A DNA stretch of 16,215 nucleotides from a virus, in IMG/VR virus record IMGVR_UViG_3300032217_000984; one strand, given 5' to 3'. The position numbers and the translations under genes are program-made. The notes under the pieces were generated by a model that did no database searches, was not told the DNA's origin, and saw nothing but the letters and a program-made list of their open reading frames with translations. Shown piece after piece: positions 1-16,215 of this stretch; the first letter of the stretch is position 1, and each line of letters opens with the position of its first letter.

Positions 1-32
1 CCCCCCCGGGGGGGGCCATTCCTGTTGGGCAC
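1..32. repeat. Left copy of a 32-bp direct terminal repeat (C7 G8 CCATTCCTGTTGGGCAC), an assembly-overlap or terminal-redundancy signature
   Basis: Bases 1-32 are identical to 16184-16215 by direct comparison. The repeat runs exactly from window start to window end. Confidence 0.95.
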
Positions 33-38
33 CGCGCT

Positions 39-1799
39 GTGGGTACCACGAAAACGAACGCGCGCCGTAAGCACCGGAAAGCGGTGCCTTTATGCGCACA
101 GCAGGCCGACGCCTACGCCCGGGAGGTGGTGGACGGGTCCATCGTGGCCAACGTGCGGGTGCGCGCAGCGTGCGCGCGCTACCTGCAACACCGGACGGAC
201 CCGGACGCGTGCGGCGTGTGGTGGGACGACGACGCCGCAGAGGCGGCCCGCGCCTTCGCGCTGAGGTGCGGCCAGGGCGCCGAAGCTGGGGCAGGGCAGC
301 CGCTGGTGTGGCTGCCGTTCCAGTGCATGATTGCCATGCTCATGGTGGCAATGCGGCGCGTGGTCGACGGCCGCCGCACCGACACGCCAGCCGTCAAGGT
401 GCTGCTGACGACGATGGCGCGCGGCAACGGCAAGACCGAGTTCGCTGCCAGCCTGATTGCGGCGGCCATGCGCGACCCCACTGGCCGGCTGGAGTTCGCC
501 AGCGTCGCGCCCGACGGCCGGCTGGCGCAGAAGACGTTCGAGCGCTTGGCGGTGATGACGCAGACGCTTGGCGGGGCGGAAGCCGAATGGACGGCCACCG
601 GCGGCAGCAGCCCGGCGCACCCCGGCAAGGTGCGGCACGGCGGCCACCGCTACACCAGCCTGCCGTGTACGGACAAAGCGCTGGACGGTCTGACGGTCCG
701 CCTGGTGGTGGCCGACGAAGTCGCGCGCATGGAACGGGCGTTCGGTCGCTTGCTCACAGGCTTGGCGAAGTTTGCCACTAGCCAAGCGCTGCTGATCACC
801 ACGCCCGATCCCGAGCAGCGAACGCGCCCCATTGCAGGGTATTTGGATGCCTGCGAACGCGCCTTGGACAGCGGCGAAGCCTTCCCGGCGGGGTGGTGGG
901 CGCTGCTTTACGGCTTGGACCGGGACGATCAGGCAGCAGACCCGTCCACCTGGCAGAAGGCGCACCCGGCGCTAGGCGTCCTGATCGACCGGACGCAGCT
1001 CGAATTGGCCGCCCGAACCATGCTGGAAAGCGGCGACCCGGCCCAAATTGCCGAGTTCGAAACGCAGTTGGCGTGCCGTTACCACGAAGTAGCGACAACC
1101 GATATCGACCTATCCGTCCTGGAAAGGCAGATGGTCGATACCGATTGGGGGCGGTTGAGAGGCGCGCCAGCCGTCATTGGGCTGGACCTGTCCAGGGGCG
1201 GCTACGGCGCGCAACTGGACTTTACTGCTCTTTGCATCATGGTGGTGGACGGTAATGTCATCCGGGCGCGGAACATCTGCTGGTGGGCAGGGATGGACAT
1301 GGCCCTGGACGAACGCCGGAGCAAGTGCCCTATTGGCGCATGGGTGGAGCAGGGCTACCTGCGCAAGATGCCGGGCGAATGGCACTGCATGGAAACCATT
1401 GCTGCAGCCATCGAAGACGCCATGCAGACCTACGACGTCCGCAAGATCGGGGTTGATCCGCACCCAGCGCAGGCGAAAGACATCCGCAAATGGCAGGACC
1501 GTGGCTGGCCGGTGATCCCCATCGACCAATCCATCCGCACGATGGCACCGGCATGGAACCTGTGGGGCACGCTGCTGAAGTCGAAGCAACTGTTCTACCA
1601 ACCCGATCCGGTGCTGCGTTCCGCCTTGAATTCCGTGCGGCTGATCCGCGACAACGTGGGGAACACGCGCCCGGTGAAGGGGCGCAGCGCAGGAAACACC
1701 GACGCGGTGGTGGCGGGGAACATGGCCGCCTTCCTGATGGAAAACCACCAGGTGCGCGAAGCTACCGGGCTAGTGCGTAGCAGGTGCCCAATTGGATAG
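39..1799 (+). CDS. terL: Terminase large subunit (HK97/Terminase_1-like)
   Basis: 586-aa ORF directly upstream of the portal gene. It has a Walker A-like MARGNGKT (nt 414-437) and a Walker B-like LVVADE (nt 702-719), and the N-terminal AYAREVVDG...AC.RYL layout is typical of this terminase family. GTG 39 is the first in-window start, but the frame is open to base 3 and, across the circular junction, back to ATG 16159. Confidence 0.9.
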   Translation: MGTTKTNARRKHRKAVPLCAQQADAYAREVVDGSIVANVRVRAACARYLQHRTDPDACGVWWDDDAAEAARAFALRCGQGAEAGAGQPLVWLPFQCMIAMLMVAMRRVVDGRRTDTPAVKVLLTTMARGNGKTEFAASLIAAAMRDPTGRLEFASVAPDGRLAQKTFERLAVMTQTLGGAEAEWTATGGSSPAHPGKVRHGGHRYTSLPCTDKALDGLTVRLVVADEVARMERAFGRLLTGLAKFATSQALLITTPDPEQRTRPIAGYLDACERALDSGEAFPAGWWALLYGLDRDDQAADPSTWQKAHPALGVLIDRTQLELAARTMLESGDPAQIAEFETQLACRYHEVATTDIDLSVLERQMVDTDWGRLRGAPAVIGLDLSRGGYGAQLDFTALCIMVVDGNVIRARNICWWAGMDMALDERRSKCPIGAWVEQGYLRKMPGEWHCMETIAAAIEDAMQTYDVRKIGVDPHPAQAKDIRKWQDRGWPVIPIDQSIRTMAPAWNLWGTLLKSKQLFYQPDPVLRSALNSVRLIRDNVGNTRPVKGRSAGNTDAVVAGNMAAFLMENHQVREATGLVRSRCPIG

Positions 1800-9515: not shown

Positions 9516-10865
9516 GTGATCCAAAACATGATGCGCAAAGCGATGTTTGGTGAACCGTCGCTCAACGGCCCCAAACTGTACGGCAGCACTCGGGCATCCA
9601 CGTTTGTCAAGGACCTTGCTTCCGGCGCTGACAGCCTGGACGTCGTATTCATCGGCGATAGTAACACCATGTCGGCGGTCGCCGGTTCTTGGGGCTACCA
9701 CAACGGAATAAGCGCAGCAATGAACGCCAGGGGATGGGCTTGCTATGGAACGGCTGTCTACCCAACAATGACAGGATGGACGCCCGCCGGTGGTGCGTAT
9801 TCGCTCGGCGGATGGCAGAGCAATTGTTACCTGATGCAACCAACCGGCAACCTTGCCAGCGGAAACGCGTCGGGTGGAGGTACGGCATACCAAACGTGGA
9901 CGCCTGGATCAAATTGGACGCGATACGGATCGTACACAGCGTCCCCGCCAGCAAAGGATGATTGGGCTTACATCGCTTCCGGAACGTACTCGGACAACTA
10001 CAACGCGGTCGAACTGTTTGCAGCGCATCCGCTCAACTCCAATTCGCTCACGCTGCACCACCGAATCATCTACGGCACGTTCACCTTTGGTACTGGATCG
10101 TTTCGGGGCCGCACCCGTGCGTACAACGACGGTACGGTGTACGCAACCGGGGCTTCGCAATCGACGCTTGGCGGTTCGTACTCCGTCAATGCGTACGAAT
10201 ACTCGTTCACGCCGCAGGGCGTGTATCTGAATTCCTCATGGAGCGGACCGACAGCTACTGGACCGTGCGCCATCCTGTCTCACAGCATCTACTGCAAGCG
10301 CAAGGGGTGGTCTGTCACCAGCCACGGCTACATTACTGGCGGCGACAGCACCACGATTGCCAGCGTGATTACGGGGATTGGGAATACCCCTTTGCAGAAT
10401 CAACTGCAAGAGCTACGCGCCAGGCAGATTTCCGCGGGGGGAACGGGGCGAGTGTTGATCGTGGCACACTCCGGAATCAACGGTGCGGACACATCGACCA
10501 CCTGGACGACTGCCCATCAGAACATTTGGGACACCTACAAGGCTGCATGGTCTGCGCTCGGATTTCCTGCCAATGATCTTGCAATGGTTTCGTTTGTTGG
10601 TGTTCAGAGGAACTCCGCGGACACAAGCAACAATTCGGCAAGCCTTGCTGCTGTTCGTGACGGAGCGAAGACGTTTGGATTGCAGGCAAATGGGCTCACC
10701 GTTGCCCACATGCCGTCGATCATCACGTACTCCGAGCTGATCGGTCCACCGTATCTCTATCAGACGGGAACTACTGGCGACGCCCATCTGTCGGGCGGTT
10801 CCGGCAGCACGACCGACGGCTACCGGGAAGTGTCCGACCGTCTACTTACGGCGTTGCTGGCATGA
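9516..10865 (+). CDS. GDSL/SGNH-type esterase-like protein (candidate receptor-modifying tail fibre, or alternatively a lytic enzyme)
   Basis: GTG start 7 nt after GGAGG (9504-9508). Block I-like VVFIGDSNT (GDS at nt 9654-9662), block III-like VAHSGINGAD and a C-terminal GDAHL. The D-x-H spacing is not the canonical DxxH. Confidence 0.5.
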   Translation: MIQNMMRKAMFGEPSLNGPKLYGSTRASTFVKDLASGADSLDVVFIGDSNTMSAVAGSWGYHNGISAAMNARGWACYGTAVYPTMTGWTPAGGAYSLGGWQSNCYLMQPTGNLASGNASGGGTAYQTWTPGSNWTRYGSYTASPPAKDDWAYIASGTYSDNYNAVELFAAHPLNSNSLTLHHRIIYGTFTFGTGSFRGRTRAYNDGTVYATGASQSTLGGSYSVNAYEYSFTPQGVYLNSSWSGPTATGPCAILSHSIYCKRKGWSVTSHGYITGGDSTTIASVITGIGNTPLQNQLQELRARQISAGGTGRVLIVAHSGINGADTSTTWTTAHQNIWDTYKAAWSALGFPANDLAMVSFVGVQRNSADTSNNSASLAAVRDGAKTFGLQANGLTVAHMPSIITYSELIGPPYLYQTGTTGDAHLSGGSGSTTDGYREVSDRLLTALLA

Positions 10866-11167
10866 AGCTTGCTGCGGCCATCATCGCGCTGTCGCTCGCC
10901 GGTTGCACCAACCACACCGCGGCTATTGCCCATTCGGCCATTGACGCCCGCCAGGCGTTGGGGTCCGCCATCGTCCACGTAGACGCCGCGCGCCGCGACC
11001 TGGACACGCTGCAGGCGTCCGTGGACGAAGTATCAATGCACGTTGCTTTTGTTTCGGACGACGAGAACCAGATTTATGCCACGCTGCAGTACGTTTCCGT
11101 GGCGGCAATTGTCATCGGCGGCGCAGCCGCCCTATACACCATTCGGAATTGGATACCAATCCCATGA
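10862..11167 (+). CDS. Lipoprotein with C-terminal transmembrane helix (u-spanin-like topology; alternatively Llp/Cor-like exclusion lipoprotein)
   Basis: Signal peptide plus lipobox MKLAAAIIALSLAG|C. Helical middle region. C-terminal hydrophobic LQYVSVAAIVIGGAAALYTI followed by RNWIPIP. ATGA overlaps at both ends. Confidence 0.6.
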   Translation: MKLAAAIIALSLAGCTNHTAAIAHSAIDARQALGSAIVHVDAARRDLDTLQASVDEVSMHVAFVSDDENQIYATLQYVSVAAIVIGGAAALYTIRNWIPIP

Positions 11168-15884: not shown

Positions 15885-16159
15885 AGCGCCTCCGATTCAA
15901 CGGAGGCCTAGGAGAGGCGGCTAAGGCCGTTGCTGTGCCACGCAGTAGAGGCGGCACATGGACCAGGCTGGCCAAGTTGCACAAGGCGTGTCATCCCCAG
16001 TGCGTCGATTGCGGCAGCATCGTCGGCATTGAGACCGATCACGTAATACCGTTGCACCTTGGCGGCACCAACGCGTGGGGCAACCTTGCCAGTAGGTGCC
16101 ATGAGTGCCACTCGCGCAAGTCTGCAATCGAACAGCAGAAGAGGCAAGGGCTTACGTAA
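15881..16159 (+). CDS. HNH endonuclease (terminase-associated position)
   Basis: GTG 15881 overlaps the upstream stop (GTGA). Motifs CVDCG...ETDHVIPLHLGGTNAWGNLASRCHECHSRK supply the zinc-ligand pairs and the H-N-H residues. It is the last gene before the terminase, as in HK97-like cos phages. Confidence 0.8.
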   Translation: MKRLRFNGGLGEAAKAVAVPRSRGGTWTRLAKLHKACHPQCVDCGSIVGIETDHVIPLHLGGTNAWGNLASRCHECHSRKSAIEQQKRQGLT

Positions 16160-16173
16160 TGCCACGAAAGCAG

Positions 16174-16198
16174 CCCCCCCCCGCCCCCCCGGGGGGGG
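16174..16198. other. C9-G-C7-G8 homopolymer block at the genome junction; C7G7 is self-complementary. Candidate packaging/cos-related element, or part of the TerL N-terminal coding sequence.
   Basis: Read directly. The C7G8 part is duplicated at 1-15. Confidence 0.5.
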
Positions 16199-16215
16199 CC
16201 ATTCCTGTTGGGCAC
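16184..16215. repeat. Right copy of the 32-bp direct terminal repeat
   Basis: Identical to bases 1-32. Confidence 0.95.

Follow-up and report, generated by a model that had tools for sequence, protein, structure and literature searches.

A 13-nt 3' cohesive-end site inferred in a 16-kb HK97-like phage genome, with a conserved poly-C/GC flank and a large terminase frame that probably reads through both

In the window (the whole 16,215-nt stretch of DNA analysed, IMG/VR record IMGVR_UViG_3300032217_000984; positions are counted from its first letter), a block composed of C and G runs lies between the HNH endonuclease gene at the right end and, once the two ends of the contig are joined, the large terminase gene (TerL) at the left end. 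The question is what this block is for. The initial annotation offered two alternatives, the coding 5' end of TerL or a non-coding cos/pac-type element, and added a library or assembly artefact as a third option. The comparison with relatives described below supports both of the first two readings, which appear to hold at once. The junction is quite probably the 13-nt 3' cos of an HK97-like phage, the tract is its conserved flank, and TerL most likely reads through both.

The window begins and ends with the same 32 nt (positions 1–32 match 16184–16215 exactly), and after subtraction of this overlap the unit genome is 16,183 nt long, with 61% GC. The tract consists of C9 (16174–16182), a single G (16183), C7 (16184–16190, equal to 1–7) and G8 (16191–16198, equal to 8–15). 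Three C/G runs of at least 7 nt are therefore packed within 25 nt, and only one such run is found in the rest of the genome, compared with about 5.5 expected from shuffles; such clustering is far from random. The HNH gene stops with TAA at 16157–16159 and an ATG (16159–16161) overlaps this stop as TAATG, just as had been described. With the ends joined, 21 codons (MPRKQPPPAPPGGAIPVGHRA) are in frame between this ATG and GTG 39 of TerL, and the earlier claim of a frame that is open back to position 16159 is borne out. The nearest in-frame stop lies further upstream, at 16102–16104. The N-terminal peptide of a TerL read through from ATG 16159 would be (M)PRKQPPPAPPGG.

Table 1. Features at and around the HNH-TerL junction (window coordinates; nt unless stated).
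Feature	Position	Strand	Remarks
HNH endonuclease gene, 92 aa	15881..16159	+	final gene; directly 5' of cos and TerL
Proposed TerL ORF 5' end, ATG 16159, MPRKQPPPAPPGGAIPVGH...	16159..16215	+	resumes at window 33 after circularisation
Poly-C run C9	16174..16182	+	most conserved upstream cos element; ends 33 nt before the bottom-strand nick
G-C7-G8 GC-only block	16183..16198	+	counterpart of the relatives' S4-CCGAG-S5; 16184-16198 = window 1-15
Spacer ending GGGCAC	16199..16215	+	last duplex bases of the virion right end; = window 16-32
Assembly overlap	1..32	.	identical to 16184-16215; not a biological repeat
cosN, 13-nt cohesive end CGCGCTGTGGGTA	33..45	.	contains GTG 39; probable 3' overhang, nicks at 45/46 (top) and 32/33 (bottom)
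TerL body, HK97-type large terminase	39..1799	+	as listed from GTG 39
Left-end motif CCACGAAAACGAAC	46..59	+	family consensus CC-N-C-N-AAAAC-N-GAC; first duplex bases of the virion left end

The HNH protein is identified by matches to Pfam HNH/HNH_5, to PHROG HNH families and to the PDB HNH entries 4H9D and 5H0M. Its gene adjoins TerL, the order is identical in every relative examined, and HNH is conserved across the family. TerL matches Pfam TerL_nuclease (PF20441, E = 1e-16); its sole PDB sequence match is the HK97 TerL 6Z6D (E = 1e-8, query residues 123–571), and the N-terminal 303 aa match nothing in the PDB. An HK97-like head module is present (portal PF04860, 5e-61; S78 prohead protease, 3e-30; PF05065 capsid, 2e-34), along with head-tail adaptors, tail-like genes, a replication-initiator-like protein and a RusA/PDDEXK-like nuclease. 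ORF 9516–10865 carries a GDS(N) SGNH-like motif, and ORF 10862–11167 starts with a lipoprotein-like signal. Pfam and PHROGs searches of the window found neither an integrase nor recognisable lysis genes, and gave no small terminase (TerS) match for any window ORF or for two ORFs of the L011 relative; a very divergent TerS may still be encoded elsewhere in the genome. No ORF lies between HNH and TerL, hence there is no TerS gene at the HK97-like position. A +2-frame ORF beginning at the invariant TTATGCGC (window 92–781) was considered as a hidden TerS and rejected, its length varying from 13 to 283 aa among relatives. Apart from the missing TerS, integrase and lysis genes, the genome has the appearance of a small tailed phage that is complete. 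Comparison of the whole window by megablast with 50,697 phage records produced no match; in a tblastn search of phage records with TerL no hit exceeds 25% identity, and no cultured phage is close. No Rfam family matches the window. ARAGORN predicts an 88-nt tRNA-Gly(GCC) on the minus strand at 573–660, within the TerL coding region, which is probably a false positive.

Protein- and pattern-based scans retrieved a large family of relatives, with contigs of ~15–18 kb (206 TerL and 236 HNH in IMG/VR, 36 in JGI metagenomes, and 3 MAG contigs) and 54–99% identity to the window at the TerL N-terminus. Across more than 50 independent assemblies of ~16-kb phage contigs, the tract keeps one and the same position. 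Every HNH-to-TerL crossing shows the same layout: the HNH stop, C5–C9, 3–4 nt, a GC-only block (usually S4-CCGAG-S5), a spacer of about 12 nt, and then GGGCAC/CGCG.T.TGGG.A/CC.C.AAAAC.GAC (slashes mark the nicks), followed by TerL. In a MAFFT alignment of representative junctions from 31 lineages, the C5–C9 run falls at one alignment column in 31/31 (column entropy about 0), and the distance from CCGAG to the nick is exactly 27 nt in all 47 junctions that have the motif. Because the layout is the same everywhere and this distance is fixed, the tract is real and under selection, not an artefact. What the alignments show as conserved is the poly-C run together with the GC-only block, in most cases with CCGAG at its centre, at an unchanging distance from the nick. 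The self-complementary C7G7 core emphasised in the initial annotation is real in the window but not conserved in the relatives, and is specific to the window's lineage.

On the other side of the cleavage site, the left-end motif is kept even in lineages where it is non-coding. In about five lineages (L012, L022, L079, L082, L094), referred to as type II, stops are followed by an ATG 11–85 nt downstream of cos, and both the cos core and the left-end motif are retained as non-coding DNA; this persistence means that the two are cis elements themselves. Further inside, within window 88–98 (CTTTATGCGCA), ATGCGC shows no variation among 39 distinct relatives, even at the synonymous positions of a rare Leu codon (TTA) and of a Cys codon (TGC). 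The +2-frame ORF from its ATG is not conserved, and this DNA-level constraint may mark a second terminase-binding site 43–53 nt inside the left end.

Several contigs deserve a separate description. Mosaicism exactly at cos is observed in the set L013, L016, L018 and L017: L013 and L018 have an identical HNH-plus-tract arm and different TerL 5' ends, and for L016 and L013 the reverse is found. It may reflect recombination between phages whose cohesive ends are compatible, or joins made by the assembler via the shared core. The 23,003-nt contig Ga0255180_1000225 (L031/L032) contains two copies of TerL at a distance of 17,717 nt and was thus assembled through cos to more than one unit length, which is consistent with concatemer or circle reads. 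Among the GTDB species genomes, the only matches (L216, L217, L218) are MAG contigs binned as Hyphomicrobiaceae, Pseudomonadota and Rhodoglobus, and the source of P0001 is an alphaproteobacterial MAG. A freshwater alphaproteobacterium is a possible host, and the MAG bins may simply have captured phage contigs; no integration or prophage context was seen in the three MAG contigs found.

The positions at which contigs start and stop locate the physical ends of the genome. For the left end, the set comprised 47 distinct, de-duplicated contigs from more than 30 samples, starting ≤300 nt upstream of the ADAYA motif of TerL (the class counts were corrected manually: seven full-flank loci were taken out, and inspection led to the reassignment of L036, L146, L048 and L141). 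As many as 35 of the 47 contigs, including two NCBI MAG contigs, start at the base homologous to window 46 (CCACGAAAAC...). Another 5/47 start with AG-rich junk, followed by exactly the 12–13-nt stretch from window 33; of the remainder, six read through cos and one starts elsewhere. In L147 an Illumina adapter end (GCTCTTCCGATCT) is fused directly to the base equivalent to window 46. At the right end, 13 of the 22 contigs ending ≤400 nt past HNH have as their last base the one homologous to window 32 (GG(G)CAC or GGGTAC); the window itself and contig 3300023174_000969 stop exactly at this base, while L131 ends with the overhang plus CT-rich junk (CTCCC). Four contigs (3300023174_000969, 3300032291_002352, 3300042453_002297 and 3300043772_001395) are bounded by cos on both sides and lack only the 13 nt. 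In respect of headful packaging, both termini are fixed to the base, rather than one being fixed and the other distributed.

In standard end repair, 5' overhangs are filled in and 3' overhangs are trimmed off; for a phage with 3' cos ends, HK97 among them, this places the left terminus to the right of the right one, and the cohesive sequence is lost (PMC5557969). The 3' polarity is suggested here because the left terminus lies to the right of the right terminus, with 13 nt missing, which is this published signature. Cohesive ends of the lambda type, i.e. 5' overhangs that leave a shared end sequence after fill-in, were rejected, the cos-bounded contigs being without the 13 nt instead. Contig ends and library artefacts together place the putative cosN, with its 13-nt 3' overhang, 17 nt downstream of G8. 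The earlier proposal that the tract is the packaging site stands as far as a conserved cos flank is concerned, but not for the cut itself, which would fall at window 33–45, beyond the coordinates given in the initial annotation. Low-complexity adaptase tails are produced in the single-strand libraries used by JGI for low-input viromes (PMC6511391), and the C/T-rich tails on the predicted 3' ends (on the top strand, AG-rich before 33 and CT-rich after 45) would fit such tails. Library artefacts of this kind are kept in public IMG/VR and JGI contigs (the adapter at L147:1–13, and tails at the starts of L020, L022, L048, L159 and L164 and at the end of L131); the adapter fragment and the low-complexity tails mark the termini by chance but are contaminating sequence. 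The 32-bp repeat of the initial annotation is exact, but it is not a biological repeat: the overlap is an assembly read through cos from the left arm, broken in the homopolymers, and the other end of the window is the natural right end.

Whether TerL reads through cos was assessed by column entropies in 39 distinct junctions and by a start-codon survey of 57 distinct junctions, referred to as type I. Codon periodicity is clear in TerL from ADAYA onward (entropy 0.52/0.39/1.18 at positions 1/2/3) and is also present in the basic stretch RRKH..PPLC that precedes ADAYA (0.63/0.67/1.13, from about +17 after the left end); in the window TerL it is evident from about position 63. Codon periodicity is absent from the stretch comprising the tract, the overhang and the left-end motif (0.98/0.68/0.92 from tract to nick). 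Constraint at the DNA level seems to dominate in the tract, the overhang and the left-end motif, and selection on the encoded peptide is not indicated by these entropies. The two other frames are also stop-free, in 50/57 and 29/57 junctions. Stop-freeness and frame conservation carry little weight as arguments because of the GC richness and the fixed cos geometry; the latter is fixed even where the region is non-coding, and frame conservation was discarded as proof of coding.

An in-frame start is present somewhere in 56/57 type I junctions. In 46 of the 57, the interval from the left end to ADAYA contains no ATG, GTG or TTG in frame; an in-frame start is found inside the overhang in 22, and in 26 the only in-frame starts lie upstream of the cleavage site. 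Since the downstream basic stretch is coding and the only starts are located upstream of the cut, TerL must be translated across cos in these 26/57 lineages. The upstream starts are typically found immediately 5' of the poly-C run and share bases with the HNH stop: the overlap reads TTGA in lineages L039, L046 and L047, GTGA in L045 and L027, and TAATG in L052 and in the window itself. The JGI gene call for P0002 independently begins at the equivalent upstream TTG. TerL need not read through cos, as about five lineages (type II) start it downstream of the site. L059 is without a canonical in-frame TerL start upstream of the conserved region, which is either an assembly error in homopolymer length or a genuine frameshifted variant.

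In the window's own clade, the ATG is found at one column in four members while the HNH stop shifts relative to it (TAATG, TAAATG, TAAAAATG, ATGA). The N-terminal peptides of the clade are all basic (MPRKQ, MAKKS, MAKIR, MTKKR) and resemble the VAKKSP and VPRKSP starts in other lineages. The Shine-Dalgarno pairing energy is −6.8 kcal/mol for ATG 16159, −2.4 kcal/mol for GTG 39, −3.5 kcal/mol for GTG 84 and −4.7 kcal/mol for GTG 16105 (the mean for the genes of this genome is −7.8 kcal/mol, and for random sites −2.95 kcal/mol). The in-frame GTG 39 and GTG 84 are alternative starts available in this clade. On balance, the sequence comparison favours ATG 16159 as the TerL start in the window; a start at GTG 39 is judged unlikely, and one at GTG 84 somewhat more so. 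If TerL starts at ATG 16159 or at GTG 39, the body of the gene is separated by cos cleavage from the start codon or from the ribosome-binding site. The comparison supports translation from ATG 16159 but stops short of proof.

The junction could be cos while the tract is non-coding in the window, with TerL translated from GTG 39 or GTG 84 and the upstream frame open by coincidence. We regard this as rather improbable, though it keeps some weight: the segment from tract to nick has no codon periodicity, the other frames are mostly open too, both GTG codons are in frame in the window's clade, some of the overhang starts in 22/57 relatives follow a strong G-rich Shine-Dalgarno-like run, and the element works as non-coding DNA in the type II lineages. 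However, the pairing of GTG 39 and GTG 84 is at the random level, as opposed to that of ATG 16159, whose column stays constant in four clade members despite the moving HNH stop, and 26/57 relatives are without any alternative start. Moreover, GTG 39 lies in the overhang, with its ribosome-binding site on the other genome end, and cos would still split the gene. A slippage-prone contingency switch, in which the C/G runs turn the upstream TerL start on and off, is very unlikely, since changes of run length are always compensated between relatives, with the total spacing constant, and all junctions but one have an in-frame start; this is despite C9 and G8 being long enough to slip, the range from C5 to C9 among lineages, and the missing in-frame start of L059, as a 1-nt slip would give.

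Slightly less credible still is that the self-complementary C7G7, or C9 paired with G8, acts by folding the DNA or the TerL mRNA into a hairpin or cruciform. The window region does fold at −32 kcal/mol with a C9:G8 stem, but RNAalifold finds no consensus structure for 31 lineages (−1.2 kcal/mol, 2 pairs), the single-sequence z-scores are about −1, and in many relatives the G run is replaced by a C run (e.g. GACCCCGAGCCCCCC), abolishing the pairing. The option that both the homopolymer block and the 32-bp repeat arose at a contig end as artefacts of library preparation or assembly can practically be dismissed. Homopolymers break assemblies, the left end of the window is within the tract, and some contigs end in G-rich junk (e.g. 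L090); the tract is, however, interior to many contigs from various samples and assemblers, and it shows lineage-specific variation within a fixed geometry. There is likewise next to no room for headful (pac) packaging or for T7-like direct terminal repeats, with the 32-bp direct terminal repeat carried by the contig as true terminal redundancy: the ends are base-exact on both sides, the bounded contigs miss 13 nt and share no sequence, and the size of the overlap varies by contig, with 3300037502_001585 (L164/L102) showing junk on the overhang and no overlap.

The preferred reading remains the 13-nt 3' cos crossed by the TerL frame. TerL, presumably aided by HNH as in HK97, would introduce staggered nicks between positions 45 and 46 (top strand) and between 32 and 33 (bottom strand), leaving 13-nt 3' cohesive ends, 5'-CGCGCTGTGGGTA-3'. 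The C9-G-C7-G8 tract would be the right-end flank of cos, not the cut site, with CC-N-C-N-AAAAC-N-GAC as its left-end partner. TerL would start upstream of the tract, likely at ATG 16159 and translationally coupled to HNH, and its frame would pass through the tract (PPPAPPGG) and cosN. The terminase gene would then be split in virion DNA and whole again only once the cohesive ends anneal. The cos-encoded peptide is probably free of constraint and likely a disordered N-terminal tail. Ribosomes translating PPPAPPGG would have to get past strong polyproline stall motifs. A candidate recognition site is the A-tract motif at the left end, like the HK97 TerS site (PMC9410871, PMC11331095), and the poly-C/GC block, on the last-packaged side, may have a cosQ-like positioning or termination role, on the precedent of HK97. 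In this scheme we infer the 3' polarity, the identity of the cutting and binding proteins, and the translation from ATG 16159. More speculatively, poly(dC)·poly(dG) could be a motor brake, the basic TerL tail could replace TerS, and PPP/PPG stalling could restrict TerL output. A broader proposal, which we put forward tentatively, is that this widespread family of ~16-kb phages packages without a recognisable TerS and has its cos site within the 5' coding region of TerL, that ~75 bp serve both as the cos signal and as codons for a Pro/Gly-rich basic tail, that the cosQ-like or motor-arrest block is read by TerL and HNH, and that TerL is made only from circular or concatemeric DNA and is thereby self-limiting.

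The closest known system is HK97, which has 10-nt 3' overhangs and in which the HNH protein gp74 stimulates cos cleavage (PMC9410871); its TerS reads an A-tract 15–29 bp from the cut (PMC9410871; PMC11331095). As in HK97 (gp74 with TerL gp2 and TerS gp1), in the window HNH is the last gene before cos and an HK97-type TerL follows, the portal, S78 protease and HK97-fold capsid are present, the ends are fixed with a short 3' overhang (probably 13 nt, compared with 10 nt), and a motif containing an A-tract is found just inside the left end. Unlike HK97, the window is without a recognisable small terminase gene, with none between cos and TerL; it appears to be cut inside the TerL frame, or at least inside its translation-initiation region, not in an intergenic spacer; it has a poly-C/GC block at a fixed distance from the right end, and its genome is only 16 kb.

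In lambda, the cosQ-cosN-cosB site gives 12-nt 5' overhangs, there is no HNH, and TerS (Nu1) binds cosB with IHF. Late expression of lambda crosses cos after circularisation, and to our knowledge no lambda gene spans cos. The window resembles lambda in that late expression would have to cross cos after circularisation, and in having the nick site between conserved flanks, one at the cosQ position (last-packaged) and one at the cosB position (first-packaged, on the side of the terminase gene), but there is no sequence similarity, and the overhang of the window is probably a 3' one. Pac sites are located inside terminase genes in P22 (gene 3), P1 (pacA) and SPP1 (gene 1); in such headful phages the cuts are imprecise and, with terminal redundancy, each virion has an intact copy of the gene. 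The window would share with them a packaging signal within the terminase coding sequence, the DNA doubling as codons and cis site, but here a precise cos cut would divide the TerL gene in every virion. In cluster C1 mycobacteriophages, 'wrap-around' genes run from the deposited end into the beginning of circularly permuted genomes (PMC6256495, PMC7441234), the end being a reporting convention, whereas the ORF of the window would cross a physical, sequence-specific terminus. A literature search for a gene, or TerL, spanning cos turned up only these wrap-around genes of circularly permuted phages, an absence that does not prove that there is no precedent. A 3'-end cos and an HNH-assisted HK97-type terminase are already known; in the literature searched, precedents were not found for cos in the TerL frame, the conserved poly-C/GC flank and the missing recognisable TerS, the nearest analogues being the pac sites inside terminase genes and the wrap-around genes.

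For this large family of uncultured, very small tailed phages, public contigs alone were enough to give base-precise genome ends and to define the architecture of cos. The 'direct terminal repeats' of virus contigs in catalogues can be cos read-throughs, and gene callers may mis-start or miss TerL at cos junctions. If TerL truly reads through cos, this would be a case of compact dual-use DNA, in which the packaging signal constrains the N-terminus of a protein and a gene is cut in every virion and rebuilt by annealing of the cohesive ends. Together with the missing recognisable TerS, the family would then offer a minimal system for how an HK97-type TerL-HNH pair finds and cuts its site.
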